Positions 9,830 to 35,839 of a DNA stretch of 64,000 nt are shown here, piece by piece (position 1 is the first letter of the stretch; each line of letters starts with the position of its first letter). A program made the translations under genes and the position numbers. The DNA comes from Chloroflexota bacterium (GTDB taxonomy: Bacteria; Chloroflexota; UBA11872; VXOZ01). The notes below the pieces were generated by a model that ran no database searches, was not told the DNA's origin, and worked only from the letters and a program-made list of their open reading frames with translations. The stretch lies in NCBI GenBank assembly GCA_963663275.1, contig OY760183.1:2848001-2912000 (forward strand). Direction: 5' to 3'.

Positions 9830-10714
9830 ATGCAGATGGAAGAGAGAGTCGCCGCTTTCCTGGACCACATTACCGAGCAGCGTGACCTATCGGCGAACAC
9901 GCGGGCGGCGTATCGAAACGACTTGTCCCAATTGACCCGTTTTCTCCAGGCCAGGGGCATGGACGACTGGCACGGGGATGCCGCGTGGGTGGAGGCGTAC
10001 AGCCAGGATCTCATGGAACGCGGCTACAGCGCCGCCACCCGGGCGCGCAAAGTTGCCGCCGTGCGCTCGTTCTACCGCTACCTTTCCGATGAAGGGGTCG
10101 TGGCCGAGGATCCGACGCAGGATCTGGCCGGCGGGCGCGTCGAGCGCGCCCCGCCCACGGTGCTCAGCCACGAGCAAGTCGCCGCTCTCTTTGCGGCGGC
10201 CCGGGAGCGCTCATCGCCGGAAGCCCTGCGCGACCAGAGCATCTTGAGCCTCTTGTACGCGACCGGCCTGCGCATTACCGAGGCGCTGGGCCTCGACCTG
10301 GACGACATCGACCGAGAGCAGCGGCGCCTTATCGTGCGCGGGCGCAAGCGCCAGGCGGAAGCGCCCCTGGACGAGGCGTGCCTGGACGCGCTCGACCGCT
10401 ACGTCACGCAGAGCCGCCCCCGGTTGCGTACTTCCCAGTCCGGCCAGGCGCTCTATCTCAACCATCGGGGGCAGCGCCTCACCCGCCAGGGTTTCTGGCT
10501 GGCGCTCAAGCGTTTTGCGCGGGCGGCGAACTTGCCCGAGGTCACCCCGCAGACGTTGCGCCATACCTTTGCCGCGCACGCCCTGGAAGGCCAAGCGCCG
10601 CTCGAGCGCGTGCGCTCGATGCTGGGCCACAGCAACGTGAGTTCGACCCGGCGCTACACCCAGCTTACGGATGACGGCGCGGGAACCGAATCGAGCGCAG
10701 GAAACGCCAAATAG
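9830..10714 (+). CDS. xerD: XerD-like tyrosine recombinase
   Basis: LSANT.AAYRNDL N-domain; LYATGLRITE, LTRQGFW, LRHTFA, LGH...TRRY. Confidence 0.8.
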   Translation: MQMEERVAAFLDHITEQRDLSANTRAAYRNDLSQLTRFLQARGMDDWHGDAAWVEAYSQDLMERGYSAATRARKVAAVRSFYRYLSDEGVVAEDPTQDLAGGRVERAPPTVLSHEQVAALFAAARERSSPEALRDQSILSLLYATGLRITEALGLDLDDIDREQRRLIVRGRKRQAEAPLDEACLDALDRYVTQSRPRLRTSQSGQALYLNHRGQRLTRQGFWLALKRFARAANLPEVTPQTLRHTFAAHALEGQAPLERVRSMLGHSNVSSTRRYTQLTDDGAGTESSAGNAK

Positions 10715-12776: not shown

Positions 12777-14756
12777 CTATTCCCCACCAGCTAACTCCTG
12801 GCGGCGTTGGACGTAGTCCTGCACCGCCAGCAGGAATTCGGCGTGGCTCCACGTGTACGGCGTTACCGAGAGCGGCGCGTGGGTGTAGGGGTGGACCTGC
12901 TCGGCAAACATGCCGGTAGCCACCGCGTGTCGGCGCGCCCATTGCAGCAGTTCCCCGGCCGGCTTCAGGTCCGCCAGAGTCCGCGCCCGTGCCACGTGCC
13001 AGCGGCAGAGCCACATAGTCGTCACCACCCAGGGATTGCCGGGCACGTTGCCCACGTCCGTGCTGACCTGGTGGAAGCGGTCGTTCTCGAAGCGGGCCAG
13101 GCCGCCGACTTCCGTATGGCACCACAGTTGCTGGCGCACGGCCGCCATGGTGCGTTCCATGCGCTCGTCCCCGGCCGGTACCATGCCAAAGAGGCCGACA
13201 CCGGCGATGCTGGCGTCCAGCGTGAGGTCCGGCACCGGCTCGCGGTTGCCGTAGAGGCGCAGGCGCGTGACGTAGCGCCCGGTTTCCGCATCGTAGAAGA
13301 GCGCGGCGAACGCCCGGCGGATTTGCTCCGCGGCCTCCCGCGCGGCCTCCGTCAGTTCCGGCTGGCCGAAGGCCGCCGTAAACGTGCACGCGGCCCGCAG
13401 CCCGGCCCACGTGGCCGCCAGCGTGTAGGCGTGCAACCCGTAGGTCTCTTCCCACAGATCGAAGGAAGGCAGCGGCAAGCCGGTCTCCGGTTCGCGATGG
13501 CTGAGGAGGAAGTCCAGCGCCGGTTGCACCAGGTCGGCGTAGAGCGAGCGCACGAAGTCGAAGTCCCGGTCCAGGCCGAAGTGCTCGCCCAGCGCCCAGA
13601 GCAGCGTCGCCGTATTGTCGGCGGCCACCGGCAGCGTTTCTTTGCCGTCCGGCGCCACCCACGCGTGATCCAAGCTGCCCACCGCGCCAAACGAGGTGTA
13701 CTTGGAAAAGAGGTAGCCGTCGGCGGTAGGCAGTTGGCGGCAGAACTCGAAGAAGTGGCGCGTGAGGTCCGTAAAGCCCGCCCGGTCCAGCGCCACCCCG
13801 GCCAGCGCCCCCACCCGCGGCAACAGATAGCTGTACGTGTCCCCCGTGCGGCGGGCAACGTCGGGATCGCTGCCGGCCATGATCGCCCCGGTGCTGTCCA
13901 CCTGCGTCCGCAGCGTGAGCAGGCTCCGGTGGTAGAGGTCCCAGATTTCTTGCGGAATGTCCGGCTTGGGCGTGCGGTGCTTGCGCACCCAGAACGACCA
14001 GTACTCCTGCGTGCGGTGGATGAAGCTATCCGGCGTGCGGAAGCGAATCAAGCGGTTGTCGTCCAGCACGGCGTCCAGGCCGGTATTGGCCGCTAGCCAG
14101 TGGTAGCCGGTGCGGGTCTCTCCCGCCGGCACGCGGCCCAGCGCCAACATGCCCACGCAGTCCACGTCGCCCCGCGAAACGGCGTTTTGCGAAAGCCAGC
14201 CGTCTTCGGCGTCCTGCCACGACCCCCGCGCGCCCTCGGCCGTGTAGACGCCCGTTGCCCAGTCCTGGATGCCGGGCTTGTCGCCGGCCATGACGTTCAT
14301 CAGAAAGAAGCGCTGCCCCTTGTAGGCAATCAGCGACTGCGTGGGCGGATGGTAGAATACCGTGTCGCCAATGTCCGGGCCCCAAAGTTCCCACTCGTAC
14401 TGGAAGTAGAGGCGAATCTCGCGGGCGTCGTCCGTCGTGTTCTTTACGTCAAGTTGCCGCAGCAGGAAGTCGCGCACGAAGTCCAGGCAGTCCGTAAACT
14501 CGATTTCGATGCCCAACCGCCGGTGGACGGCCCTGGCGCGGGAAACCAGAGAGTAGTCGCGATAGCCGGGCGTGATCTCCCAGGCCGGATCGCCCAGCCA
14601 GGAGAATTGGTCGTCCACCCAGACGCCGACGCGGGAAGGCCGCGCCGCCAGGTGATTGTCGGCGCCGACGTTCGGATAGTAGAGATCCCGAATGCGGTAG
14701 CGCTCATCGAAGTTGACGAGCATGCTGCCGTTGCCAATGGTAAGCGCGCGCGGCAC
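12777..14756 (-). CDS. Glycoside hydrolase family 15 (glucoamylase/trehalase-like)
   Basis: IGNGSMLVNFD N-terminus, SFDLWEE, GNPW, FAEQV, TWSHA. Confidence 0.85.
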   Translation of the reverse strand: MPRALTIGNGSMLVNFDERYRIRDLYYPNVGADNHLAARPSRVGVWVDDQFSWLGDPAWEITPGYRDYSLVSRARAVHRRLGIEIEFTDCLDFVRDFLLRQLDVKNTTDDAREIRLYFQYEWELWGPDIGDTVFYHPPTQSLIAYKGQRFFLMNVMAGDKPGIQDWATGVYTAEGARGSWQDAEDGWLSQNAVSRGDVDCVGMLALGRVPAGETRTGYHWLAANTGLDAVLDDNRLIRFRTPDSFIHRTQEYWSFWVRKHRTPKPDIPQEIWDLYHRSLLTLRTQVDSTGAIMAGSDPDVARRTGDTYSYLLPRVGALAGVALDRAGFTDLTRHFFEFCRQLPTADGYLFSKYTSFGAVGSLDHAWVAPDGKETLPVAADNTATLLWALGEHFGLDRDFDFVRSLYADLVQPALDFLLSHREPETGLPLPSFDLWEETYGLHAYTLAATWAGLRAACTFTAAFGQPELTEAAREAAEQIRRAFAALFYDAETGRYVTRLRLYGNREPVPDLTLDASIAGVGLFGMVPAGDERMERTMAAVRQQLWCHTEVGGLARFENDRFHQVSTDVGNVPGNPWVVTTMWLCRWHVARARTLADLKPAGELLQWARRHAVATGMFAEQVHPYTHAPLSVTPYTWSHAEFLLAVQDYVQRRQELAGGE

Positions 14757-14980: not shown

Positions 14981-15008
14981 TTGACTACCCAAGCCGGTGT
15001 GTTATCCT
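14981..15008 (+). promoter_or_regulatory. Putative sigma70 promoter of the CxxC paralogue cluster
   Basis: TTGACT-16 bp-TATCCT with a TGn extension. Confidence 0.55.
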
Positions 15009-15153: not shown

Positions 15154-15657
15154 ATGCCGGTTCATCGACCCACTACGTTACCGGTAGTCGGCACGGCCAG
15201 GGGATTGCTTGCGCATCCGGACATACCGGCCTTTCCGCTGGAGGCGTTCCGCGCCGCCCACCCTTCCGGCCAACTGCGGTGCGGGAGTTGCGGTGAATTG
15301 GTGCGGCACGACCCGTGCTCGGTCGTGGAATCATTGTTAGAGCACATGCCGGCGGCAGCGAAGCGCCTCTGGGGGCCTGAGACACCCATTGCGGTGAGTC
15401 TCGCCCACGACTTCTACCCATACCAGCCGCACGCCGCGACTCCGGACTGCGGTGGCGAGCCACCGGCCACGTTGCACGTGCTTGTGTATGAAGACGGCGC
15501 ACGGGAGAAGTGGCTCAGCAACGACGACGGGCAATGCGAGCGCTACTATGGCATCGTCTACCGCAACGCGGCGTCTCTGTCGATGCCGCTAGGACGTGCC
15601 CCCGCGCCCGTATTCCGTGAAGTCTGGTATCCCACCGGCGACTTTCGCGAACTCTGA
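15154..15657 (+). CDS. Hypothetical CxxC protein, type A copy 1 (frame continues to 15720 past a UGA)
   Basis: AGGAAGG RBS; clear paralogue of 16284-16781 (PSGQ.RCGSCGEL, WGP, DDG..E..YGIV.R, REVWYPTG.FR). Confidence 0.8.
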   Translation: MPVHRPTTLPVVGTARGLLAHPDIPAFPLEAFRAAHPSGQLRCGSCGELVRHDPCSVVESLLEHMPAAAKRLWGPETPIAVSLAHDFYPYQPHAATPDCGGEPPATLHVLVYEDGAREKWLSNDDGQCERYYGIVYRNAASLSMPLGRAPAPVFREVWYPTGDFREL

Positions 15658-15753
15658 CGCCCTACCGGCGGCTTACGGGAGAACCTGCACCCTACCGGAG
15701 GCATTCGCGAGGGCGTGTAACTTGGAAGCGAACTCCAATCCGTTTTGCCTGAG

Positions 15754-15893
15754 GAGACCCTTGCAAGAGTCCGTCATTCCGGTGAAAGCCGGAATCCAGG
15801 GTACCTTTACACTACCATCAACATGAAGTCAAGCCAATTCACCTTAATGCCAAACCTTGGCCCTTGATTGGGAAGGGGTTACGCAGAGGTCTC
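15754..15893. mobile_element. MITE-like element with GAGACC(T/C)TTGC...GCA(A/G)AGGTCTC terminal inverted repeats
   Basis: Imperfect TIRs; interior is homologous to 48153-48456 in reverse orientation. Confidence 0.7.
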
Positions 15894-15937
15894 CCCAGGC
15901 AGATGGCTAGAACGAAGGTTGACCGTGGAGGTCGGCA

Positions 15938-16246
15938 ATGCCGGCGCATGAGATCATCGTCACGCGTATTCCCCAGGAACGCGGGGAGGAACCGGCGGCG
16001 GGCGTAGCTCAACCGCAGACCGTAGGGGACTACCGCGCCCGCTACGGTAACCGCATAGTGTGCCGTACCTGCCGAGAGGAAATCAGCGTCAGCGGCTTGG
16101 AGCAGGTGTGGGAAGCGTACGGTCCTGACGCCGTAATCGATATTTCCCACCGGGGCTTGCGCCTGCCCGGCGATCCGGTCGATCTGCCGCTCGCGCCGGG
16201 CTGGCAGCCTCAGCCGCGCCGGCCCGCCGCCGCGTCCGACGAGTAA
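15938..16246 (+). CDS. Hypothetical CxxC protein, type B copy 1
   Basis: GGAGG RBS; paralogue of 17330-17620 (MP.HEIIV.RIP, TV..YRA, CxxC, GP(D/E)A, PG(D/E)P). Confidence 0.8.
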   Translation: MPAHEIIVTRIPQERGEEPAAGVAQPQTVGDYRARYGNRIVCRTCREEISVSGLEQVWEAYGPDAVIDISHRGLRLPGDPVDLPLAPGWQPQPRRPAAASDE

Positions 16247-16283
16247 CGCCCGAAAAGAGAACGGCAGCACAGGGAGGGCAGCA

Positions 16284-16781
16284 ATGCCACCACGGCAACA
16301 GCCAATCCATCGAACCCTCACGGGACTGGCCGTTTCCGAGCACGAGGGCCAGCCCGTGCATCTCCACATCCCGGCCTACACGGTGGCCGAGTTCCGCCGC
16401 GCCTATCCTTCAGGTCAGGTGCGCTGCGGCAGTTGCGGCGAACTGCTGGACTATCAGCGCGGCTTCGAACTAACGGAGGAGCGGTGGGGGCCGGATACGG
16501 TCATGACGTTCGCGCTCTCGCACGAGTACTTCCCGGCTGACTTCCTTGAGCAGGACTCCACGCCGGCCGCGGCAGGCCAGGCCCTTGGGCAATGCCCGGT
16601 GCTCTATTCCGATGACATCCGCGAGGAGTACGCCCGGCGCGACGACGGTCGCGACGAATGGCTCTACGGCATCGTGTTCCGCGACGCGCGCGCGCCGGAG
16701 CGCGTGTACCGTGAGGTCTGGTACCCCACCGGCGTGTTTCGTTCCCCTCTCCCCGATGAGACCTTTGCAAAACCTCGCTGA
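16284..16781 (+). CDS. Hypothetical CxxC protein, type A copy 2
   Basis: GGGAGG RBS; paralogue of 15154-15657. Confidence 0.8.
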   Translation: MPPRQQPIHRTLTGLAVSEHEGQPVHLHIPAYTVAEFRRAYPSGQVRCGSCGELLDYQRGFELTEERWGPDTVMTFALSHEYFPADFLEQDSTPAAAGQALGQCPVLYSDDIREEYARRDDGRDEWLYGIVFRDARAPERVYREVWYPTGVFRSPLPDETFAKPR

Positions 16782-17277
16782 GAGGCGAACAGTTCCCTCT
16801 CCTGGGGGAGAGGGTTAGGGTGAGGGGAGATTGTGCGGCAAGTCGTGCCTATATCTTGCGGAATGGGGGCCGAACCGACGAGGATTCCCCCTCAACGGAC
16901 AGGGGTAGGCATTCTACATTCGACTTCACGTGTCATTCCGAGCGGAGCGCAGCGGAGAGAGGAATCTAAGGTTTTCGCTGCAAAAACGTCGGTTCTAGAT
17001 TCCTCGCTCCGCTCGGAATGACACTTGCCTACCCCTGTCAGCCCCAGGGAGAGGGAGTCTCAATGCGCGCCGACCGTGGTTACGTAAAGGTCTCCGAGGG
17101 CTGACAGGGGCATTTGGCTGACTAGGGCACATAGACGAGAATCGAGTTCACCTGTCATTCCGAACGGAGCGCAGCGGAGAGAGGAATCTAGAGCGCCGGA
17201 CTTTTCTGACGCCGTGCGGCACGTACACTAGATTCCTCGCTGCGCTCGGAATGACGCTTACATACCCTTTCAGGCCC
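16758..17277. mobile_element. Composite of nested MITE-like elements
   Basis: Outer TIRs GAGACCTTTGCAAAACC (16758) / GGTTACGTAAAGGTCTC (17094); inner element 16897-17044 nearly identical to 48183-48334 reversed; a further GGGCTGACAGGGG-ended element at 17098-17277. Confidence 0.75.
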
Positions 17278-17329
17278 CGGGGGTTAGGGTGAGGGCGTTT
17301 GTCCCTGTCAAGGAGCAAGGAGTTCGCCA

Positions 17330-17620
17330 ATGCCGCGCCATGAAATCATCGTCGAGCGCATCCCCGATACGTTCCGGGGCAAGCCGGTGCGCCTGCCGCC
17401 GCCTGAGGCATTGCACACCTTCCACCCAGAGACGGTGGCGGCGTACCGCGCGCTCAACCCCGCGCTGCGGCATGAGTGCCCATCATGCGGTACCACCTTC
17501 GATATGAGCAGCCTGGCGCCGGTCCTGGACGCCTGGGGGCCGGAGGCCCGATTCACCGTCTCGCTGAAGTGCCTGTGGGTGCCGGGCGAGCCGCGCCTCG
17601 ACCCGGAGCAAAGACGGTAA
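17330..17620 (+). CDS. Hypothetical CxxC protein, type B copy 2
   Basis: AAGGAG RBS; paralogue of 15938-16246. Confidence 0.8.
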   Translation: MPRHEIIVERIPDTFRGKPVRLPPPEALHTFHPETVAAYRALNPALRHECPSCGTTFDMSSLAPVLDAWGPEARFTVSLKCLWVPGEPRLDPEQRR

Positions 17621-17857
17621 CGCACACGCGCCAACCTCAAACGACTCTCCACCGAACGCGGCCCGCCGCGGTGACGGCCTGACGCGCGCGCCGCAATTCA
17701 TGCGCGGGCTGTCTCTCACGCTTGCGGCATGGTACGATGAACGTGTCCGCGACGGCGGCGCTAGAGATCGGCGGCCTCTCCCCCGCGTTCTCAGCAGACG
17801 CCAGTGCCCAACTCACGCTCCGCCAGGCGGCCCGCGCCGCCGGAAACGGAAACGCCG

Positions 17858-18370
17858 GTGAACGCATTCCTCACGCAATTGAAGAGCAAGCGCATCATCT
17901 GGCCGCTCCTCCTGACGGCGCTGATCATCGTCTCCGACCAGGTTACCAAGGCCTTCATCGTGGACTGGCTCAAGCCCCAGGGCAGCGTCTCCATCATTGG
18001 CGACCTGCTGCGGCTCACGTTCGTCACGAACACCGGCGTGGCGTTCGGGATGCTCACCGGAATGCCCTACGTGCTCATGGTGCCCATCGTCATCCTCATT
18101 TGCGTCATCATCTTCTATCTGGTCAAGACGCTCGGCCAGTCGTTCGTGCTCACCTTGGCGCTCACCTTAGAACTTGGCGGCGCGCTGGGCAATCTGATCG
18201 ACCGCATTCGCCTGGGCTACGTGGTCGACTTCGTGAAGTTTCCCTACTGGCCGGCCTTCAACGTCGCCGACAGTTGCGTGGTCGTCGGCGCGATCGGCCT
18301 GGCATTCATCCTCTTCTGGCAAGACCGCCAGGAGACCGCGTCCAAACCGGAATCCCCGCCCGCGCCCTAG
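17858..18370 (+). CDS. lspA: Lipoprotein signal peptidase II
   Basis: DQVTK, NTGVAFG, GALGNLIDR, VVDF, FNVAD. Confidence 0.95.
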   Translation: MNAFLTQLKSKRIIWPLLLTALIIVSDQVTKAFIVDWLKPQGSVSIIGDLLRLTFVTNTGVAFGMLTGMPYVLMVPIVILICVIIFYLVKTLGQSFVLTLALTLELGGALGNLIDRIRLGYVVDFVKFPYWPAFNVADSCVVVGAIGLAFILFWQDRQETASKPESPPAP

Positions 18371-22677: not shown

Positions 22678-24750
22678 ATGGAACGCCACTTTCCCATAGA
22701 ACGCTACCGCAATATCGGCATTATTGCGCACATCGACGCCGGCAAGACCACCACGACCGAGCGGGTGCTCTTCTACTCCGGGCGCATCCACCGCATGGGC
22801 GAGGTGCACGAAGGCACCACGGCCATGGACTACATGGTGCAGGAGCGCGAGCGCGGCATCACCATCACGGCGGCCGCCACTACCTCCATGTGGCGCGACC
22901 ACCGCGTCAACATCATCGATACGCCCGGTCACGTGGACTTTACCGCCGAGGTCGAGCGCTCGCTGCGGGTCCTGGACGGCGGCGTGGTAGTCTTCGACGC
23001 GGTTTCAGGTGTCGAGGCCCAATCGGAGACGGTGTGGCGTCAGGCGGACCGCTACGGCGTGCCGCGCATCTGCTTCGTCAACAAGATGGACCGCATCGGC
23101 GCCGACTTCTGGAACTGCATCGACATGATCCGCGAACGCTTGCAGGCGCAGCCGGTGCCGATCCAGATACCCCTGGGCGCGGAAGACTCTTTCACCGGCA
23201 TGATCGACCTCTTCACGATGGAGGCGGTCGTCTTCACGGACGAACTCGGCGCAAAGCCAACCATCGGCCCGATACCGGACGAGTTGCGCGCGGAGGCGGA
23301 ACTGCGCCGCCACGAGATGGTAGAAGCCATTGCCGAACACGACGAAGACCTGCTCCTCAAGTACCTGAACGATGAGGAGATTTCCAACGCGGAACTCAAG
23401 GCGGCGCTGCGGCGCGCGACCTGCGAGGTTACGCTGGTGCCCGTCCTGTGCGGCGCGGCCCTGCGCAACAAGGGCGTGCAGCCGTTGCTCGACGCGGTGG
23501 TGGACTTCCTGCCCTCTCCCACCGACGTGCCGCCCATCAAGGGCCTGGCGCCGGTGTCCGGCATGGAAGAGTCCCGGCCCTCCAGCGATTCCGCTCCGTT
23601 TGCGGCGCTGGCATTCAAAGTGGTCACGGATCCGTTCAGCGGCCGCCTGGTCTACTTGCGCGTCTACTCGGGCACGGCCGAGGCCGGTATGCAGATGCTC
23701 AACGCGAGCCGCAACCGGCGCGAACGGCTGGGACGCTTGCTCTTGATGCACGCCGACAAGCGGGAAGAGATTTCGAGCATCTTCGCCGGCGACATCGTGG
23801 CCGCGGTGGGCTTGAAAGACACGGTGACGGGGGATACCCTCTCCGCCGTGAACCATCCGATTGCGCTCGAGTCGATTAGCTTCCCGGACCCGGTGCTTCA
23901 CATGGCAATCGAACCGAAGAGCCGCCTGGAAGAAGACCGGCTGTCCGCGGCGCTGCGGCGTTTGTCCGAAGAGGATCCCACGTTCCGCGCCGGCCAGGAC
24001 CAGCAAACCGGCGAGACCATCATCGGCGGCATGGGCGAGTTGCACCTGGAGGTAATCGCCGACCGGCTGCTGCGCGAGTTCAACGTGGAAGCGTCCCTGG
24101 GCGCGCCGCAAGTAGCATACAAGGAGACGGTCCAGCACCCGGTGGAGCAGGAAGGCCGGTTCATCCGGCAGACCGGCGGCCGGGGACAGTACGGCCACGT
24201 CTGGCTGCGCATCGAGCCGTTGGAAAGCGGCGCCGGCAACGAAGTCGAGAACGCCATCATCGGCGGCACGATTCCCAGGGAGTACATCCCGGCGGTGCAA
24301 GCCGGCATCAGAGACAGCCTGCTGGCCGGCCCGCTCGGCTACCCGGTGGTGGACGTGCGCGTTACGGTATTCGACGGCTCGTTCCACCCGGTGGATTCAT
24401 CCGAACTCGCGTTCCACAACGCCGCGGTCGTGGCCATGCGCGAGGGCCTCAAGAAGGCGCGGCCCGTGACGCTGGAGCCGATCATGGAAGTGGAAGTGAT
24501 GATCCCGGAGGAGTTTCTCGGCGAAATCGCCGGCGCGCTCAACGCCCGGCGCGGCAGCATCGACGAAATCCAAACCCGGCTGGGCACGAAGGTGATCCAG
24601 GCCAAGGTGCCGCTGGCCGCGATGTTCGGCTATGTAAACACCCTGCGTTCCAGCACCCAGGGCCGCGGCACGTATTCAATGCAATTCTCGCACTACCAGC
24701 AAGTGGCGGAAAGCGCCCGGGAACTGGTAGCCAGAGCCGGCAGACACTAG
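22678..24750 (+). CDS. fusA: Elongation factor G
   Basis: [21 protein letters not shown]. Confidence 0.98.
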
Positions 24751-24804
24751 ACGGTACGAACACAGACCTCACTGTGCGCATGAGCAGAAGGAGAGAGCAG
24801 TAGG

Positions 24805-26007
<1,203 letters not shown>

Positions 26008-26010
26008 CTT

Positions 26011-26322
26011 ATGGCGCAACAGACCATTCGCATCCGGTTGAAGGCTTTCGACCACAGAGTGCTCGATCAGTCGGCGGGCCAGATCGTCAGCGCCGCCCAG
26101 GGCACCGGCGCGCGCATTGCGGGCCCGATTCCGCTGCCCACGGAGATAAACAAGTACACGGTCATTCGCTCGCCCTTCATCGATAAGGATTCGCGCGAGC
26201 AGTTCGAAGTGCGCACGCACAAACGGCTGATCGACGTGCTCGAACCCAACGCCAAGACGATGGATGCGCTCCTGCGGCTGGAATTGCCCGCGGGTGTGGA
26301 TATTGAAATGAAGTCCATGTAG
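26011..26322 (+). CDS. rpsJ: 30S ribosomal protein S10
   Basis: [17 protein letters not shown]. Confidence 0.98.
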
Positions 26323-26337
26323 AGGAATGCCGCACGC

Positions 26338-27003
26338 ATGTCAATCGGCTTAATCGGCAAGAAAATCGGAATGACGCAGGTCTTCGACGGCGCGGGCGCC
26401 GCCGTGCCGGTGACGGTTGTCCAGGCGGGGCCGTGCACCGTGGTGCAGGTCAAGACCGCCGCGGGCCCGGATGGCTATAATGCCGTGCAGCTTGGGCTGG
26501 GCGAACGCCTGAAGAACGTCACCAACCCGGCGCGGGGCCATGCCGCCAAGCATCTGGGCGACGATGCCGCCGTGCCCCGGGATCTGCGCGAGTTTCCGGT
26601 GGCGGACCCGAGCGCGTACGAAGCCGGGCAGACGCTCAACGTGGATCTCTTTGCCGCGGGCCAGGCGGTGGACGTGACCGGCATCTCCAAAGGCAAGGGC
26701 TTTGCCGGCGTGATGCGGCGGCATAACTTCAGCGGACAGCAGAAGACCCACGGTCAATCCGACCGCTGGCGCGCCCCGGGCGCGGTCGGCATGGGCACCA
26801 CCCCGGGCCGCGTGTGGAAAGGCCAGCCCATGGCGGGCAGAATGGGGCAAGACCGGGTAACGGTGCAGAATCTGGAAGTGGTAGACGTTGTGAGCGAGCA
26901 AGACATCCTGCTCATCAAGGGCGCGGTGCCCGGCGGGCCGGGCAGCCTGGTCACGGTGCGGCCCGCGGTGAAGGCGCCCGGTTCAGCGCAGGCAAGCGAG
27001 TAG
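26338..27003 (+). CDS. rplC: 50S ribosomal protein L3
   Basis: KIGMTQ, SKGKGFAG. Confidence 0.98.
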   Translation: MSIGLIGKKIGMTQVFDGAGAAVPVTVVQAGPCTVVQVKTAAGPDGYNAVQLGLGERLKNVTNPARGHAAKHLGDDAAVPRDLREFPVADPSAYEAGQTLNVDLFAAGQAVDVTGISKGKGFAGVMRRHNFSGQQKTHGQSDRWRAPGAVGMGTTPGRVWKGQPMAGRMGQDRVTVQNLEVVDVVSEQDILLIKGAVPGGPGSLVTVRPAVKAPGSAQASE

Positions 27004-27009
27004 AACGCA

Positions 27010-27636
27010 ATGGACGTGCAAATTATCGACACACAGGGCAATCCCGCCGGCAGCACGGCGCTGCCCCCGCACATCTTCGACATCGAGCCGCACGCGGCGT
27101 TGGTGCACCAGGCCGTAATCCGGGACGAAGCCGGGCAACGGCTGGGCAGCGCCAGCACCAAGACCCGCAGCGAGGTGCGCGGCGGCGGGCGCAAGCCCTG
27201 GCGCCAGAAGCACACCGGCCGCGCGCGCCACGGCAGCCGGCGCTCGCCCATTTGGCGCACCGGCGGCGTGACGTTCGGCCCCCACCCGCGCGACTATCAC
27301 CGCGCCATGCCGCGCAAGATGTGGCGCAAGGCGATGTTTTCCGCGCTATCCGATAAGGCGCGGTCCAACCGCCTGCTGGTTGTGAGCGCCTTTCCCCAGG
27401 AGAGGATCAGCACCAAAGAACAGGCGGCGTTCCTGGACCAGCTCGGCGCTACCGAAAGCGCGCTCTACGTAACGGTGTCGCCGCCGGAGGAACTCACCCT
27501 TTCCATCCGCAACCTGCCCGGCGTGGCGCTCTCGACCCCGCACACGCTCAGCGTCCGCGACGTGGTCGTCTTCGAGCACCTGATCTTCGATACGGAAGCC
27601 GTGGCCGCGTGCGAACGACTGTGGGGGCAAACATGA
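27010..27636 (+). CDS. rplD: 50S ribosomal protein L4
   Basis: GGGRKPWRQKHTGRAR. Confidence 0.98.
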   Translation: MDVQIIDTQGNPAGSTALPPHIFDIEPHAALVHQAVIRDEAGQRLGSASTKTRSEVRGGGRKPWRQKHTGRARHGSRRSPIWRTGGVTFGPHPRDYHRAMPRKMWRKAMFSALSDKARSNRLLVVSAFPQERISTKEQAAFLDQLGATESALYVTVSPPEELTLSIRNLPGVALSTPHTLSVRDVVVFEHLIFDTEAVAACERLWGQT

Positions 27637-27920
27637 AAACCGCCCAGGAAGTCCTCATCCGGCCGCTCATTACGGAGAAGGGCACCCTGCTCTCCGACCA
27701 GAATAAGTATCTCTTCGCCGTGGCGCCGGACGCCACCAAGATCGACGTGCGGCGCGCCGTGGAGCAGACGTTTGGCGTAACCGTGCTGTCCGTGAACGTC
27801 ATGAACGTGCCCGGCAAAGAAAAGCGCTTCGGCCGGCACCGCTACCGCACGCCCCGCTGGCGCAAGGCGATCGTATCGTTGCGGGCCGGCCAGACGATCG
27901 ACCTCTTCAGCGGAGTCTAG
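27633..27920 (+). CDS. rplW: 50S ribosomal protein L23
   Basis: PLITEK, KAIV; operon position. Confidence 0.97.
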
Positions 27921-27934
27921 GGAAGGATGAGCCG

Positions 27935-28765
27935 ATGCCAGTAAAATCCTACAAGCCCACCTCCGCCGGACGGCGCGGCATGACCGCGGTCGAGAACAGC
28001 GACATCACCAAGGCCAAGCCGGAGCGGCGGCTGACCAAAGGCCTGAAGCGCAAGGCCGGCCGCAACGTCTCGGGCAAACTCACCGTGCGCCACCGCGGCG
28101 GCGGCCACAAGCGCCGCTATAGGACGATAGACTTCAAACGTGATAAGATAGGGATTCCCGGTACTGTAAAGGCAATCGAGTACGACCCGAACCGGAGCGC
28201 CCGCATCGCGCTGGTCGCCTATCGCGACGGCGAAAAGCGCTACATTCTGGCGGCAGCCGGTTTGAACGTTGGCCATACGGTGGTGTCGGGGCCGGACGCG
28301 CCGATACGCCCCGGCAACTGCCTGCCGCTGCGCAACATTCCGGCCGGCACGGCGGTGCACAACCTGGAACTCCAGGCCGGGCGCGGCGGACAGCTTGCCC
28401 GCAGCGCGGGATCGTCGGTGCAACTTATGACGAAAGAGAGCGATTACGCGGTCATACGGCTGCCGTCGGGTGAAATTCGCCGCGTGCACCTGACGTGCAT
28501 GGCAACCGTCGGCCAGGCGAGCAACGTGGATCACGTCGGCGCGACGACCGGCAAGGCGGGCAGGGCCCGCTGGAAAGGGCGGCGGCCCACGGTGCGCGGC
28601 TCCGCCATGAATCCCCGGGACCATCCGCACGGCGGCGGCGAAGGCAAAGCGCCGATTGGCTTGCCGGGTCCCAAGACGCCCTGGGGGAAGCCGGCGCTGG
28701 GTTTGCGCACGCGCAAGCGAAAGCCGTCGGACAAGTTCATCTTGCGCCGCCGTTACGCGCGCTAG
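27935..28765 (+). CDS. rplB: 50S ribosomal protein L2
   Basis: [20 protein letters not shown]. Confidence 0.98.
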
Positions 28766-28780
28766 GAGGAATCGCACGCT

Positions 28781-29065
28781 ATGTCGCGGTCATTGAAAAA
28801 GGGACCGTTTGTCGACGAAAAGCTGCTGAAGCGCGTTCAGACGATGAACGACAGCGGCCAAAAGCGCGTGCTGCGCACGTGGTCCCGCGCCTCCACCATC
28901 TTTCCGGACATGGTGGGCCATACGATCGCCGTGCATGACGGCCGGCGCCACGTGCCGGTCTACGTCACGGAGAACATGGTGGGGCACAAACTGGGCGAAT
29001 TCGCGCCAACGCGCAACTTTCGCGGGCATTCCCGCGAAGACCGCACGACCCAAGTGCGCGCTTAA
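28781..29065 (+). CDS. rpsS: 30S ribosomal protein S19
   Basis: [18 protein letters not shown]. Confidence 0.98.
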
Positions 29066-29080
29066 CTGAGGATACTGCGG

Positions 29081-29452
29081 ATGCAAGTACAAGCGATCGG
29101 CAAATACCTGCGGGTGTCGCCGCGTAAAGCGCGCCGCGTCGCCGCTACCGTAACCGGGCGCTCTGCCGGGGAGGCGCTGGCAATCCTGCGCTTCCTGCCC
29201 AGCCCAACGGCGCGCATGTTGGCGAAAGTCGTGCGCTCCGCCATGGCCAACGCGGAGAACACGTACAACCTGGACCCGGCCGAACTGACGGTGGCCAGCG
29301 TGCGGGTAGACAAAGGCCCGGCAATGAAACGCTTAGACCCAAAGGCGCGCGGCCAGTGGGGCCTGCGCAAGAAGCGCACCAGCCACGTAACCGTAATCGT
29401 CGCGGACGAGGATAGTGCTGATGATGAGGAGATCCTGAGCAGTGGGGCGTAA
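29081..29452 (+). CDS. rplV: 50S ribosomal protein L22
   Basis: SPRKAR, SAMANAE, TSHVTV. Confidence 0.97.
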   Translation: MQVQAIGKYLRVSPRKARRVAATVTGRSAGEALAILRFLPSPTARMLAKVVRSAMANAENTYNLDPAELTVASVRVDKGPAMKRLDPKARGQWGLRKKRTSHVTVIVADEDSADDEEILSSGA

Positions 29453-30290
29453 AGTTCACCCGGTCGGCTTCCGCTTAGGCTTCAATCGGACGTGGAGCAG
29501 CCGCTGGTATGCCGGCAAAGAGTACGCGGCGCTCACCGAAGAAGACAGCAAGATACGGAAGATGGTTCTTGCTCAGTTCGAGCAGACCCGCGCCAGCCGC
29601 ACCGGCGGCCGGCGGGGCGGCATGGGCGCCGGCATCTCCCAGGTAGACATCGAGCGCGCCGGCACCACCATTAAAGTGGACATCCATACCGCGCGCCCCG
29701 GTATCGTCATTGGACGCGGCGGCGCCGCCCAGGCCCAATTGCGCAAGGACCTGCGCGAACTGACCGGCAAGAACGTGCGCACCAATATCATCGAAATCAA
29801 GCAGCCGGAGACCAACGCCTTCCTGGTGGCGCGGGCCGTGGCCGAGCAACTTGAGCGGCGGGTTTCGCCCCGCCGGGCGATCAAGATGGCGGCCGACCGC
29901 GTGATCCGCTCCGGCGCAATCGGCGTGAAGCTGATGGTCGGCGGCCGCCTCGGCGGCGCGGAGATGTCGCGCAGCGAGAAGGAAATTCGCGGCACGGTGC
30001 CGCTGCAAACGCTGCGCGCCAACGTCGATTACGGCTTCACCCAGGCCCAGACCACCTACGGCATTCTGGGCGTGAAGGCCTGGATATATACCGGCGACGT
30101 TACGCCGGAAGAGTTCTACGCCCGGCAGGAAGCGGCCGCGCCGGAAGAGACTCCGCCGCCACCGCCGCGCCGGCGGCGCAGACGCCCGCGGCGCAGCGCG
30201 GATCGCGCCGGGGGTGAGGGCGGCCAGGGCAGGCGCCGCGGCGGCGCCCAGCGCGACAGGAGTTCCGGCCCAAGAGAAGCGAGCGAGTAG
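29442..30290 (+). CDS. rpsC: 30S ribosomal protein S3
   Basis: [22 protein letters not shown]. Confidence 0.97.
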
Positions 30291-30298
30291 AGCCAGCC

Positions 30299-30721
30299 AT
30301 GTTGATGCCGAAACGCACCAAGCACCGCAAAGTCCACCGCGGCCACCGGCGAGGCAAAGCCTACCGGGGTTCCACCATCGCCTTTGGCGACTTTGCCCTC
30401 CAGGCCACCGCGGGCGGTTGGGTTGACAATCGACAGATCGAAGCGGCGCGCCGCGCGGTGACGCACCACATCCGGCGCGGCGGACAGATGTGGATTCGCA
30501 TCTTTCCCGATAAAGGACTGAGCAAGAAGCCCGTGGAGGTACGGATGGGCGGCGGCAAAGGCCCGCCGGAACAGTGGGTTGCCATCGTCAAGCCCGGCCG
30601 CATCCTCTTCGAACTGGCCGGCGTGCCCGAAGACGTGGCGGCGGAAGCCATGCTGCGCGCCGCCCACAAATTGTCGGTAAAGACCCGCTTCATCTCGCGG
30701 GAAACCCCGGAAATCGTGTAA
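30299..30721 (+). CDS. rplP: 50S ribosomal protein L16
   Basis: QIEAAR, WIRIFPD, RMGGGKG. Confidence 0.98.
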
Positions 30722-30749
30722 GCGAAGAGCGGCGAGGAAAGACTGCGAA

Positions 30750-30953
30750 ATGGCGAAACCGGCGGAACTGCGCGCCTTGAGCGCGGAAGACTTGCAGGAA
30801 CGGCTGGATGAGGCTCAGGAAGAGTTGTTCAACCTGCGCTCGCAACAGGCGACGGTGCAGCTTGAGAATCCCGCCCGCTTCGGCATTCTCTTCCGCGAAG
30901 TTGCCCGCATCAAGACGATCATGCGCGAACGAGAACTCGGCATCAATAGCTAA
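30750..30953 (+). CDS. rpmC: 50S ribosomal protein L29
   Basis: ELFNLR, VARIKT. Confidence 0.95.
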
Positions 30954-30976
30954 GAGCGAGAATAGAGATACACCTA

Positions 30977-31315
30977 ATGGCAGCAGAGGCAAAAGCAACC
31001 GGCCGCCGGAAGCAGCGCAAAGGCGTGGTGGTAAGCGACAAGATGGATAAGTCCGTCGTCGTCGCCGTCACCCGCGTGCGCCGCCATCCGTTGTACAAGA
31101 AGACCGTGCGCAGCACCAAGAAGTACCTGGCGCACAGTCCGCGCAACGACGTGCACACCGGCGACCGCGTGCTCATCGAGGAAACGCGGCCGCTCTCCAA
31201 ACGCAAGCATTGGCGGGTAGTGCACGTGATCGAGCGCGGCGAACAAGCGGCAGTGGACATTATCGATGATACGGCAGCCGCCCTGCCGCCGGAACCCGCA
31301 GAGGCGGCCCCATGA
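30977..31315 (+). CDS. rpsQ: 30S ribosomal protein S17
   Basis: [17 protein letters not shown]. Confidence 0.97.
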
Positions 31316-31680
31316 TTCGAGAGACGTCACGCCTGAAGGTCGCCGACAATTCCGGCGCCCGCGAGATCATGTGCATTCGCGTGCTCGGCGGCTCGCGCCG
31401 CAAGTACGGCGGCATCGGCAGCATCGTCGTCGCTTCCGTTAAGGAGGCCGTGCCCCTCAGCCAGGTGCGTGAAGGCGAAGTGGTGCGCGCGCTGATCGTG
31501 CGCACGGCCAAAGAATACCGGCGCACGGACGGTTCCAGCATTCGCTTCGACGATAACGCCGCCGTTATCCTGGGCCCGCAGAACATGCCGCGCGGCACCC
31601 GCATCTTCGGGCCGGTGGCGCGGGAACTGCGAGAGATGGGATTCATGCGCATCATTTCCCAAGCGCCGGAGGTGCTCTAG
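31312..31680 (+). CDS. rplN: 50S ribosomal protein L14
   Basis: [18 protein letters not shown]. Confidence 0.98.
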
Positions 31681-31682
31681 CC

Positions 31683-32003
31683 ATGCAGCGGATTCAATCC
31701 GGCGATCAAGTGGAAATAATGCGGGGCAAGGACCGGGGCAAGCGCGGTCGCGTAATGCGCGTGCTCCTGGCCGACCGGCGCGTGGTGGTGGAAGGCGTCA
31801 ACATCGTCAAGCGCCATCAGCGCCCTATGCCGCCCATGCAGCCCGGCGGCATCATCGAGATGCCGGCGCCGCTGGCGGAGTCGAACGTCAAGATCGTGTG
31901 CCCCAATTGCGACCAGCCGGCCCGCGTCGGCTACCGCATCCTGGAAGACGGCAGCAAGGCGCGCGTGTGCAAGCAATGCAAAGAGATTATCGGCCAAGAG
32001 TAA
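31683..32003 (+). CDS. rplX: 50S ribosomal protein L24
   Basis: GKDRGKRG KOW motif, VEGVN; two CxxC. Confidence 0.97.
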   Translation: MQRIQSGDQVEIMRGKDRGKRGRVMRVLLADRRVVVEGVNIVKRHQRPMPPMQPGGIIEMPAPLAESNVKIVCPNCDQPARVGYRILEDGSKARVCKQCKEIIGQE

Positions 32004-32012
32004 GGATTTCCC

Positions 32013-32600
32013 ATGGCGGCAACCTCGCCGAAGACGGCGAAACCACACATGCAAGAACAGTACGAGAGTGACGTACGCCAAGCCATGATCAGTGAGTTTG
32101 GCTATGCCAGCGTGATGCAGGTACCGAAGATTACCAAGGTGGTGATCAACATCGGCCTCGGCGAGGCTCTGGAAGACGCCCGCGCCCTGGATAACGCCGT
32201 GGGCGACCTGACCACCATTACCGGGCAGAAGCCCATCGTCACCCGCTCCAAGAAGAGCGTCGCGAACTTCAAGCTGCGGGAAAACCAGGCAATCGGCGCT
32301 AAGGTGACGCTGCGCCGCACCCGCATGTATCACTTTCTGGAAAAACTCTTCAACGTGGTGTTTCCGCGCATACGGGACTTTCGCGGCGTGTCTCCCAACG
32401 CGTTCGACGGCCGCGGCAACTACTCGGTGGGCCTGCGCGAGCAACTGGTGTTTCCGGAAATCAACTACGATGAGGTTGATCGAGTGCGCGGGCTGGAGGT
32501 TACGATCGTGACCTCGGCGCGGACCGATGAGGAAGCCCGCTTCCTGCTGCGCGCGCTCGGCATGCCGCTGGCGCAGGAAGCCGCCCAAATCGCAAGCTAG
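32013..32600 (+). CDS. rplE: 50S ribosomal protein L5
   Basis: [21 protein letters not shown]. Confidence 0.98.
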
Positions 32601-32613
32601 GAGAGCAATAGCC

Positions 32614-32823
32614 GTGGCGAAGAAGTCCAAGATTGCCAAGTGGCGCAAGCAGCGGAAATTGCTGCAAGAGGGGCGCATGCAGCATCCCGTGAAGTTTCGC
32701 AACCGCTGCTACCAGTGCGGCCGGCCGCGCGCTTACATGCGCAAATTCGGCCTCTGCCGCATCTGCTTCCGCAGCGCCGCTCTGCAGGGCTTGCTGCCCG
32801 GCGTGACAAAGTCTAGCTGGTAA
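32614..32823 (+). CDS. rpsN: 30S ribosomal protein S14, zinc-binding (C+) type
   Basis: RCYQCGRP...LCRICFR; GTG start. Confidence 0.96.
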
Positions 32824-32846
32824 TAACAGGCGAGAGAAAACCGACC

Positions 32847-33248
32847 ATGACCATGACCGATCCCATTGCCGACATGCTGACGCGGATACGCAACGCCATC
32901 CAGGCGCGCCATACCCACGTCACCATTCCCGCGTCCAAGATGAAGACCGCAATCCTCCGCATCCTCGAAAGAGAAGGCTACATCGGTCAATTCGAGACGG
33001 TGGACCAACAGACGCCCCAGGCCATGCTCAAGGTCAGCCTGAAGTACACCGACGAACGCGATCCCGTGCTGCTGGGGCTGCGCCGCGTGAGCAAGCCCGG
33101 CCTGCGCGTCTACGCGGGCAAAGACGAGATTCCACGGGTCATGGGCGGCATCGGCACCGTCATACTTTCCACCTCCTCCGGCGTGATGACCGGCCGCGAG
33201 GCCTGGCAACGCAAGATCGGCGGAGAGGTTCTCTGTTACGTTTGGTAA
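32847..33248 (+). CDS. rpsH: 30S ribosomal protein S8
   Basis: [20 protein letters not shown]. Confidence 0.98.
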
Positions 33249-33259
33249 GGTAATGCGCT

Positions 33260-33811
33260 ATGTCTCGTGTCGGTAGTCAACCGGTTCCCATTCCCAGCGG
33301 CGTTGACGTGAACGTGAACGCCGCGGACGTGCGCGTGAAAGGGCCGAAAGGCGAGTTGCATATCACCGCCGCGCCGGCGATCACGGTGACCGTGGCGGAG
33401 AGCGCCGTACACCTGGAGCGCGCCTCCGAAAGCCGCGAAACCCGCGCGCTGCACGGGCTCACGCGCGCCCTCGTCGCCAACATGGTGCAGGGCGTTACGC
33501 AGGGCTTCAGCAAGACGCTTGAACTGCACGGCACCGGCTACCGCGCGCAAATGGCCGGCAAGAGACTGGTGATGCAGTTGGGCCACTCGCATCCGGTGGA
33601 GTATGAGCCGCCCGCGGGCATTGCGATCGAGGTGGAAAACCCAACCACCATCCACGTTGCGGGCATCGATAAACGCTTGGTAGGCCAGGTGGCGGCGGAC
33701 ATCCGCAAGGCGCGGCCCGTAGAAATCTACCTGGGCAAGGGCATCCGCTACCGCGGCGAGTACGTGCGCCGCAAGGCCGGCAAAGCCGGCAAGATCGGCG
33801 CCGGCGAGTAA
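33260..33811 (+). CDS. rplF: 50S ribosomal protein L6
   Basis: VKGPKGEL, GKGIRY. Confidence 0.98.
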   Translation: MSRVGSQPVPIPSGVDVNVNAADVRVKGPKGELHITAAPAITVTVAESAVHLERASESRETRALHGLTRALVANMVQGVTQGFSKTLELHGTGYRAQMAGKRLVMQLGHSHPVEYEPPAGIAIEVENPTTIHVAGIDKRLVGQVAADIRKARPVEIYLGKGIRYRGEYVRRKAGKAGKIGAGE

Positions 33812-33952
33812 ACGCGCCGAGGCAAGAACAACCAAAGGCGAATTGGACGAAGAGGCGAGCAACAGTCCTAACGGTGCTTCTTGTCCCCTCTCCCCGATGG
33901 AGAGAAGCAGGAAGTTTGACCCCCTCCTGAGGGAGAGAGACAGGGGGTTTGT

Positions 33953-33986
33953 CCCCTCTCCCTGAGGGAGAGGGTTAGGGTGAGGG
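33953..33986 (+). repeat. BoxC-like dispersed repeat CCCTCTCCC-N2-3-GGGAGAGGG(T/C)(T/C)(A/G)GGGTGAGGG
   Basis: Copies at ~16795, 33953, 43858, 51334 and 55017, partial at ~17279. Confidence 0.8.
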
Positions 33987-34020
33987 CGAAAGAACGAGAG
34001 CGAAGAACTGGGAATACCAC

Positions 34021-34398
34021 ATGCGATTAATGCCGGGAAGAAAATCACTGAGCGCGCGGGCGCGCAGACAGCGCCGGGTGCGCGCCAAGATTAGCGGCGT
34101 GGCGGCACGGCCCCGCCTCAACGTCTATCGCAGCAGCCAGCACATCTACGCCCAATTGATAGACGATACCACGCATCACACGCTGGCGGCGGCGTCAACC
34201 CTCGATCCGGACGTGCGCGCGCTGCTGGATGAAAAGCAACCGAAGGCGGCGCAGGCGGCCATGGTCGGGCGGGTCGTGGCGGAGCGCGCCCAGGAACGAG
34301 GCATCGAAGCCGTCGTCTTCGACCGGGGCGGTTACCGTTATCACGGCCGGGTGCGCGCCCTCGCGGAAGCCGCCCGGGAAGCGGGCCTGAAGTTTTGA
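34021..34398 (+). CDS. rplR: 50S ribosomal protein L18
   Basis: [21 protein letters not shown]. Confidence 0.97.
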
Positions 34399-34404
34399 CC
34401 CCTG

Positions 34405-34520
34405 GTAGGGGCACGACATGTCGTGCCCCTACCAGGGGAAATCAACGTCGAGGCACGACGTGTCTTCCCCCTAGCGAAGATGATTGATGCGGAAGCGCGA
34501 CGTGTCGCGCCCCTACCAAG
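34405..34520. repeat. GTAG-type REP family B (GTAGGGGCACGACATGTCGTGCCCCTAC) plus two decayed copies
   Basis: 28-bp palindrome at 34405-34432; also at 48768-48795 and 59010-59037. Confidence 0.8.
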
Positions 34521-34568
34521 AGTGTGGACTTCCGCCTGAACCGAGAACGGCGGAATGGAAAGAGATAG

Positions 34569-35165
34569 GTGAACATGCCGGAACGGGTTTCCATCGACGC
34601 GGCGGCGTTGAATCTCGAAGAGCGCCTGGTGAGCGTCAACCGGGTGGCCAAGGTTGTGCGCGGCGGACGCACGTTCAGCTTCAACGCGGTGGTCGTGGTC
34701 GGCGACGGCGACGGACACGTCGGCATCGGCATCGGCAAAGCGCGCGAGGTGGCGGAAGCCATTCGCAAAGGCGGCGAGAAGGCGCGCAAGGCGCTGGTGC
34801 GCGTGCCCCTGGCCGGCACCACCATTCCGCATGAAATCACCGCCAAGTTCGGCGCTTCCCGCGTGCTGCTCAAACCGGCCGCGCCCGGCACCGGCGTCAT
34901 CGCCGGCGGCCCCGTGCGCGCCGTCGTTGAAATGGCCGGCGTACACGACATTCTCACCAAGTCGCTCGGCTCCAACAACGCCATCAACGTGGTGCGCGCC
35001 ACCATGGCGGCGCTCCAGCAATTGCAGAATCCCGATGAGGCGTACGCGCGCCTGGGTCGTCTCGTGCACCGGCGCAAACCGCCGGCGGAGCAGAGCGCGG
35101 TTCCGGCCGGCGCCGGAGAAGCCGCGCCGCAGGCCCAGGCGGAAGGCGGCGGCAATGACAACTGA
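34569..35165 (+). CDS. rpsE: 30S ribosomal protein S5
   Basis: [18 protein letters not shown]. Confidence 0.98.
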
Positions 35166-35358
35166 TTCGTCCTCAGCGAAGTCGCTGCGCATCACGCTGC
35201 GCAAGAGCCCGATCGGCTTTCCCAAAGACCAGAAGCAGACTGTGGCCGCCCTGGGGCTCAGGAAACGCGAACAGACCGTGGAACACAACGCAACACCGGC
35301 CGTGCGCGGGATGATCGAGAAAGTCTCTCATCTCGTGCGCGTCGAGGAAGTAGAATAA
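35155..35358 (+). CDS. rpmD: 50S ribosomal protein L30
   Basis: ITLRKSPIG...ALGLRK...[12 protein letters not shown]. Confidence 0.95.
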
Positions 35359-35371
35359 GGACCGCAGAGGC

Positions 35372-35833
35372 ATGAAACGACACGCGCTGCGCTCACCGGA
35401 CGGCGCCAAGCGGCCGCGCAAGCGGGTGGCGCGCGGACACGGCGGGCGCGGCCACAAAACCGCCGGGCGGGGCACCAAGGGACAGAAGTCCCGCTCCCAC
35501 GCCGGCGTTCCCGCCTGGTTCGAGGGCGGCCAGACGCCGTTCGTGCGGCGGCTGCCCCATCGGCGCGGCTTTAGCAACGCGCGCTTCCGCGTCGCCTACC
35601 AACCGGTCAACGTCGGCGACCTGGCCCGCGTCTTCGAGAGCGGCGCCACCGTCACACCGGCCGACGTCGTGGCGCGGGGACTCGCCCGCTCCACGCAACT
35701 CAAAGTGCTGGGCGACGGCGACGTCGGCCATCCGCTCACCGTGCACGCGCCCAAGTTTTCCCAGGCCGCCCGCGCCAAGCTGGAGGCGGCCGGCGGCGCT
35801 TGCCACGAAATCGGCAGCGCTGAGGAAGGATAG
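35372..35833 (+). CDS. rplO: 50S ribosomal protein L15
   Basis: GRGTKGQKSR, FEGGQTP. Confidence 0.97.
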   Translation: MKRHALRSPDGAKRPRKRVARGHGGRGHKTAGRGTKGQKSRSHAGVPAWFEGGQTPFVRRLPHRRGFSNARFRVAYQPVNVGDLARVFESGATVTPADVVARGLARSTQLKVLGDGDVGHPLTVHAPKFSQAARAKLEAAGGACHEIGSAEEG

Positions 35834-35839
35834 CGCCGC

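Follow-up and report, generated by a model that had tools for sequence, protein, structure and literature searches.

What kind of system is encoded by four small genes that follow one another in an alternating long-short-long-short order at positions 15154-17620 of a 64,000-nucleotide stretch of contig OY760183.1, from a Chloroflexota bacterium? This whole stretch is called the window here, the long genes are called A and the short genes B. A preliminary description, made from the letters of the window, had reported four co-oriented open reading frames (ORFs), each with a ribosome-binding site, and all four are confirmed in position and length:

15154-15657, plus strand: A1, long subunit, 167 amino acids; an ORF of a deep, long-branched lineage of the family, with all invariant residues kept.
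15938-16246, plus strand: B1, short subunit, 102 amino acids; an ORF, the partner of A1.
16284-16781, plus strand: A2, long subunit, 165 amino acids; an ORF, sister in the tree to the copy that genome G007 carries at site I.
17330-17620, plus strand: B2, short subunit, 96 amino acids; an ORF, the partner of A2, with most of its relatives' C-terminal tail missing.

Purine-rich, Shine-Dalgarno-like stretches (GGAAGG, GGAGG, GGGAGGG and AAGGAG) lie 6-12 nucleotides (nt) upstream of the four starts. The reading that we prefer, with a probability of roughly 0.6, is that the window holds two diverged copies of an autonomous A-then-B operon, which encodes an obligate heterodimeric zinc protein and forms an accessory cassette. 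Paralogy, linkage, gene overlap, selection, distribution and natural fusions are read directly from the genes and genomes; zinc binding, the heterodimer and the role are what we infer.

A1 and A2 are paralogues (BLASTP E 2e-35, 39% identity), as are B1 and B2 (E 1e-14, 38% identity). A2 also matches B2 (E 3e-7, 26% identity), and the single sequences of A1 and B1 give no significant BLASTP match to each other. The family alignments hold 31 A and 19 B sequences. In a profile-profile comparison with hhalign, the N-terminal half of A matches B over 85 columns with a probability of 99.1% (E 7e-19), a result that identifies the shared core as true homology. Judged by this match, the N-terminal half of A and the whole of B descend from one ancestral domain, so that the common core seen in the preliminary description, and its proposal that one domain gave rise to a long and a short form, are both borne out. 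The window genome (G000), a single 3.53-Mb contig, carries in total two A and two B genes, namely those of the window.

The two genes are also bound to one another elsewhere. B lies directly 3' of A for 15 of 15 A genes, which come from nine genomes of one genus, and no solo B occurs among the 17 genomes of that genus. Thirteen of the 15 B genes are intact, one is frameshifted (in G006) and one is split by an insertion sequence (in G004, at the site called III below), and A is broken in none of the 15 pairs. The insertion sequence in G004 carries a DDE_Tnp_1 transposase, occupies L034:8751-9716 and leaves the neighbouring A intact; that A, compared with its counterpart in G015, has the highest ratio of nonsynonymous to synonymous substitution rates (dN/dS) among close pairs, 0.55.

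The spacing of the genes is equally regular. In the 11 intact pairs outside the window, B starts 14 nt before the end of A in nine (-14 nt) and 8 nt before it in one (-8 nt), and a gap of +183 nt separates the genes in the last. All 11 have GGAG(G) 5-9 nt upstream of the B start, within the codons of the Glu-Glu-Val tail of A, and in 8 of the 11 the TGA stop of A is made from the His4-Glu5 codons of B (...CATGA...). The ancestral layout, in which the GAGGAGG of the Glu-Glu codons in the A tail serves as the Shine-Dalgarno sequence of B and the B ATG lies 11 nt before the A stop, is shown by this arrangement of signals to be translationally coupled. So compact a design argues for the co-production of A and B. 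A second case of two tandem A-B pairs is found in G007 (L037:9275-10943), where both pairs belong to the site-II clade and keep their 14-nt overlaps intact.

The A-B unit occupies at least five chromosomal sites with unrelated neighbours, and genomes carry zero to three pairs:

Site I: flanked by a MocA-type oxidoreductase gene and an RraA-like gene; filled in G003, G006, G012, G007 and G013.
Site II: flanked by tgt and gcvP; filled in G015, G007 (two tandem pairs), G005 and G004.
Site III: flanked by a DUF4147/MOFRL gene and genes for solute-binding proteins; filled in G004 and G015.
Site IV: flanked by mgsA and crtC; filled in G004.
Window site: flanked by a GH15 hydrolase gene and lspA; filled in G000.

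Site I is empty in G008, G016 and G001, where a clean interval of ~100-150 bp stands in place of the ~1.5 kb of the filled genomes; no direct repeats are seen at the junctions between filled and empty forms. Although its sister is the copy at site I of G007 (support 98/96), A2/B2 lies at a different site, which indicates that units relocate. Comparison of these sites shows that, within one genus, gain, loss, duplication and relocation have apparently affected the unit as a whole.

Both genes are maintained. Among pairs with a synonymous distance (dS) below 0.7, dN/dS is 0.16-0.55 for A in 8 of 8 comparisons and 0.18-0.53 for B in 9 of 9; on these ratios both A and B are under purifying selection, as fast-evolving genes. 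Trees of 15 A and 13 B rows, from which the two broken B genes were omitted, give the same three groups: the site-II clade, the long-branched A1/B1, and the rest, including A2/B2. This congruence indicates that the pairs diverged as pairs, which supports the preliminary description's proposal that the pair was duplicated; the duplication is old. By their place in the trees, A1B1 and A2B2 of the window are old, deep lineages and not a recent local tandem copy.

Which known family could such a pair belong to? Against Pfam and NCBIfam, A and B give only local, sub-threshold matches near the CxxC knuckle, the best for a window protein being 15 bits where the cut-off is 29. No single Pfam zinc-ribbon family matches more than 8 of the 31 A sequences (best E 0.0008) or more than 2 of the 19 B sequences. 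PADLOC returns zero matches and PHROGs only weak, knuckle-level ones, none of which reaches threshold; no toxin, antitoxin or defence family reaches cut-off or significance for either protein in Pfam, NCBIfam or PADLOC. For the A2 model, Foldseek finds no match at E <=0.001 in PDB or BFVD. In an exhaustive VIA-align comparison, the best Z for the A2 model is 4.2, below what unrelated models usually reach, with ranks 1-13 (Z 3.1-4.2) taken by the UTRA effector-binding domains of GntR/HutC regulators. The best of these (Z 4.2, root-mean-square deviation (rmsd) 4.2 Å, 86 residues aligned) is weak and has no counterpart in a Pfam UTRA match. The best Z for the B2 model, 2.8, is likewise below the usual level for unrelated models. 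The ESM Atlas gives no usable neighbour: the best score is 0.76 for A2 and 0.91 for B2, the latter from unnamed small proteins with few features in common.

Several individual candidates were considered as well. A marginal hit to a SnoaL/NTF2-like chain in the PDB-sequence profile search (E 0.014) was rejected, the first part of the alignment falling on the chain's expression tag; no such chain is among the VIA-align fold matches listed for A2. Cytidine deaminases carry the signature H/C-x-E ... P-C-x-x-C on two helices; in B, His and Glu are direct neighbours on a predicted strand, the Cys motif reads C-P-S-C with no Pro before it, and there is no Pfam match to such zinc enzymes. The anti-sigma H-x3-C-x2-C and HNH motifs are not matched by A or B, and an N-terminal-proline tautomerase does not fit, Pro2 not being invariant. 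A full-text literature search with four motifs of the family gave no paper. Assessed across these profile, motif and fold comparisons, A and B are a previously undescribed family with no detectable relatives in curated families or solved structures, and the preliminary description's failure to recognise a family is upheld by the Pfam, NCBIfam, PADLOC, PHROG, PDB-sequence and fold searches.

The distribution of this family is narrow. A word-indexed search of 5.8 billion proteins yields 22 A relatives among 55 candidates, and a B profile on the same set 46 B relatives among 558 candidates; their only name is 'hypothetical protein', and the sole named source is a Chloroflexota metagenome-assembled genome (MAG). 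When the A profile was run in full with HMMER against 1.84 billion cluster representatives, only 12 proteins reached E <=0.001, one of them a B; another, P0079, is internally repetitive and was judged spurious. G000 and 8 of the 16 other species of its genus carry the family (9 of 17 genomes); it was found in none of 24 genomes from ten other genera of the class, and in 7 of 401 genomes of a phylum sample, all within 1 of 217 genera. Scanning 185,579 species with a pattern, one genome for each, gives 12 loci on 8 records, all labelled 'MAG: Chloroflexota bacterium'. Two sponge-metagenome runs (X2 and X4) contain DNA contigs ~95% identical to parts of the locus; the runs listed for the locus include none of RNA. 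As far as these searches reach, the family does not extend beyond a single genus of uncultured Chloroflexota.

What might the proteins look like? The AlphaFold2 models are of fair quality, with a predicted local distance difference test score (pLDDT) of 79.4 and a predicted template-modelling score (pTM) of 0.72 for A2, and 78.1 and 0.62 for B2. A (~160-180 residues) begins with a domain of ~90 residues, built from a strand with a His, a helix, a beta-hairpin knuckle that carries the CxxC, a further helix and a second strand with a His; a three-stranded beta-meander follows. B (~95-125 residues) is a paralogue of this N-terminal domain alone, extended by a disordered tail, and the elements of B2 come in the same order as those of A residues 8-81. 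All 31 A sequences keep H9, C48, C51 and H80, and all 19 B sequences keep H4, C50 and C53; in the last strand of B, a His or Cys occupies one or the other of two same-face positions, which are two residues apart. Of the motifs listed in the preliminary description, the CxxC, the N-terminal His and the downstream His of A thus stand as invariant, and WGP is conserved only in part: B has an invariant G70, whose neighbours W69 and P71 reach at least 90%, and in A, P70 alone reaches 90%. The C-terminal sheet of A adds four invariant charged or aromatic residues, E125, R133, R143 and W146.

There is one CxxC per chain in A and in B. It sits in the beta-hairpin knuckle, which is flanked by short strands 45-47 and 54-56 in the A2 model and by 47-49 and 56-58 in the B2 model. 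In both models, strand 1 starts with the first His, and the domain's final strand ends with the last ligand. Antiparallel pairing of the first and last strands would let the four residues meet, and each chain may bind one zinc through His(strand 1)-Cys-x-x-Cys-His/Cys(last strand).

The A2·B2 complex is predicted with a score of 0.78, and the best of three controls scores 0.34. Of 80 solved complexes, 58 reach the mark for this score, as do 2 of 110 mismatched pairs, a calibration that is only approximate here, with alignments built by the authors. The prediction runs share at least 86% of their contacts, and partner pLDDT is at least 77. The predicted interface sets B strand 3-12 against A 101-109, and B helix 55-65 against A 102-108 and 135. 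A and B would accordingly form a 1:1 pseudo-symmetric heterodimer in which the N-terminal strand of B (3-12) adds to the beta-sheet of A at 101-109. Two metagenomic proteins are natural fusions: P0074 (286 amino acids) joins an A domain (17-164) to a B domain (200-280), and P0025 (174 amino acids) joins the C-terminus of A to a B domain through a linker. They provide independent support for A and B acting together. Both proteins are acidic, with a median isoelectric point of 5.2 for A and 6.1 for B, which makes general nucleic-acid binding unlikely.

Two alternatives concern the architecture itself. A and B could be neighbouring paralogues that form no complex and work in parallel or redundantly, each alone or as a homo-oligomer. 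That they have a domain in common is compatible with this, and adjacency alone often occurs without binding; however, the 14-nt gene overlap is conserved, linkage is strict (15/15, with no solo B), two fused forms are known, the A and B trees are congruent, and the predicted complex stands well apart from its controls in score (0.78 against at most 0.34), contact agreement (at least 86%) and partner pLDDT (at least 77), so that separate action appears improbable. Still less probable, and close to negligible, is that the CxxC of one chain joins that of another in an interchain zinc site like the Rad50 hook, an option that the preliminary description had set beside an intrachain His, CxxC and His/Cys site. 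The single CxxC in each chain is what speaks for a shared site. Each chain nevertheless conserves two more candidate ligands, the strand-1 His and the last-strand His/Cys, and this conservation favours the intrachain option; the models in turn disfavour the hook because they place the CxxC in a hairpin knuckle between short strands and not at the tip of a coiled coil. The CxxC residues are also outside the confident interface list, in which B residues 47 and 55, on either side of the motif, are the nearest to it. Conservation and models together favour one putative intrachain zinc per chain over a Rad50-type shared hook.

The role of the pair is the part on which alternatives differ most. A-B may be a self-contained module of the conflict or addiction type, similar to a toxin-antitoxin system, a view we hold only tentatively; A would then be an upstream neutralising or scaffolding partner and B a dispensable effector. 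A patchy distribution over several sites in several copies, co-resident diverged pairs and fairly high dN/dS support such a role, as do the coupled, antitoxin-like gene order and the decay of the downstream gene only. Somewhat more doubtful is the fuller version, that A·B is at once a new fold and a new two-component conflict module acting in addiction, defence or host interaction, in which the paralogous long subunit would restrain or activate the zinc-bearing short subunit, and which would be specific to sponge- and invertebrate-associated Chloroflexota and spread as a ~1.3-kb cassette without a recombinase of its own. The competing explanation, that A·B is an ordinary, non-selfish accessory protein, is possible to about the same degree as the simpler module: a zinc- or redox-dependent sensor, a small-molecule binder or a small enzyme, perhaps with a ligand pocket between the beta-sheet and the helices, and with a use specific to the host-associated lifestyle of the genus. 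Fusions and a homologous, pseudo-symmetric build are typical of obligate heteromers and not of antagonists, both proteins are acidic, the invariant E125, R133, R143 and W146 lie on the C-terminal sheet of A, and UTRA effector-binding domains at ranks 1-13 (Z 3.1-4.2) are a weak fold hint in the same direction. Set against this, a Z of 4.2 is under the level typical of unrelated models, no conserved neighbour gene hints at a pathway, the unit is missing from 8 of the 17 genomes of the genus, and copy number varies, with diverged paralogous pairs co-resident in one genome.

Several points weigh against the preferred reading of a heterodimeric zinc protein on an accessory cassette, or against its extension to a toxin-antitoxin-like role. 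The complex score is the model's own confidence, and one control gave 0.34; the putative zinc site is drawn from conservation and the order of secondary-structure elements. The asymmetry of broken genes, two against none, is a very small sample, and the B frameshift in G006 could be an assembly error. No recombinase, terminal repeats or upstream sequence common to the sites marks the unit, and differential loss of old paralogues could account for part of the patchiness. As for toxin-antitoxin systems, B is a homologue of the N-terminal domain of A, the two proteins are alike in being acidic, Pfam, NCBIfam and PADLOC give neither of them a match to a toxin, antitoxin or defence family, neither shows a DNA-binding domain, and stable A-B fusions occur.

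Within the window, the coupled layout has been altered. The gaps between A1 and B1 (280 nt) and between A2 and B2 (548 nt) contain repeats, which are listed here with a promoter-like site upstream of the array:

14981..15008, plus strand: promoter-like site, TTGACT-16-TATCCT with a TG extension, ~145 nt 5' of A1; from a consensus scan, weak, with 1 site against 0.7 expected in shuffles.
15702..15911, no strand assigned: dispersed repeat element or elements between A1 and B1, making the 280-nt gap; from metagenomic depth and matches in congeners.
16745..16849, no strand assigned: short dispersed repeat overlapping the 3' end of A2; from matches elsewhere and high metagenomic depth.
16920..17282, no strand assigned: two palindromic copies (16920-17049 and 17142-17282) of ~106-130 nt, resembling a miniature inverted-repeat transposable element or a repetitive extragenic palindrome, making the A2-B2 gap; from direct repeats D2 and D3 and inverted repeats I1-I7.

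Contig depth reaches thousands across 15702-15873, and likewise just after A2, in four of four runs; the sequence of 15748-15911, like that after A2, recurs at many places in congeners. For the palindromic element, 40 of 222 candidates were scored, and every one of them is a copy in the window genome, with 87-100% identity; related copies are present in congeners. A1 and A2 both stop shortly after the conserved ...YPTG-x-FR, without the usual tail, and B1 and B2 retain the ancestral GGAGG-ATG start. Repeats in the gaps, lost A tails and kept B starts together indicate that both pairs have been uncoupled with no conserved residue broken; the insertion of dispersed palindromic repeats has removed the A/B overlap in each pair, leaving each B with its own ribosome-binding site. 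The promoter-like site is a candidate promoter of the array, given the weak evidence of the scan. Within the repeat at 16745-16849, a sub-threshold match to the Whalefall-1 RNA covers 16793-16827 (25.2 bits, where the gathering score is 37).

The array is flanked by GH15 (12777-14756) and lspA (17804-18370). In 15 of 15 congeners with both genes matched (of 16), the relative orientation of these two is the opposite one and ~8-9 kb separate them, which places the window array at an inversion or rearrangement junction. A gene for a tyrosine recombinase (Phage_integrase with a SAM-like N-terminal domain) is located at 9830-10711 of the window, 4.4 kb 5' of the array, and may be a housekeeping XerC/D. 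Further along, a positive AT skew of 0.15-0.22 is sustained over ~12 kb, at 24001-36000.

The genes are real, selected and tightly coupled, and their relatives among 1.84 billion cluster representatives are limited to a dozen clusters. Confirmation of the heterodimer, with its two His-Cys-Cys-His/Cys sites, would establish a new small zinc-binding architecture and a clear case of a domain duplicated into a 'full' and a 'partial' subunit with a common beta-sheet. Symbiont genomes are rich in conflict-type systems, and cassette-like gain, loss and relocation make the pair a candidate for a new system of this type in such genomes.

How does the pair compare with known systems? Zinc ribbons are defined by two CxxC/CxxH knuckles that give four ligands. 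Like the zinc-ribbon and knuckle families Zn_Ribbon_TF (PF08271), Zn_ribbon_12 (PF11331) and Zn_ribbon_5 (PF13719), A and B hold a CxxC knuckle in a beta-hairpin, and their weak local matches to such families are limited to ~15-25 residues around it. Unlike them, A and B have one knuckle only, a single CxxC per chain, and their other candidate ligands are a His or Cys on each of two distant strands; zinc ribbons have no equivalent of the remainder of the domain or of the C-terminal sheet of A. UTRA or chorismate-lyase-like domains (2fa1, 3hfi) share with the A2 model an antiparallel sheet packed on short helices, at a Z of only 3.1-4.2, an rmsd of 4-7 Å and an identity of 4-14%. In contrast to A, they lack a zinc knuckle and share their chain with a winged-helix domain that binds DNA. 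The Rad50 hook has its CxxC at the tip of an antiparallel coiled coil, where it holds a zinc common to two chains. One CxxC per chain is found there as in A and B, whereas A and B have no predicted coiled coil and conserve intrachain ligands.

The comparison with type II toxin-antitoxin systems is of another order, being a likeness in genetic architecture to what is generally known of these systems, in which one product stops growth and is neutralised through binding by the other. The partners in A-B differ from them in being mutually homologous, acidic and naturally fused, and in having neither a DNA-binding domain nor homology to a toxin-antitoxin family. What the two have in common is a pair of small, adjacent, co-oriented and coupled genes with overlapping stop and start, tight binding of the products (predicted for A-B), a patchy occurrence of multiple copies at unrelated sites with diverged pairs co-resident in one genome, and a downstream gene that is the broken one.

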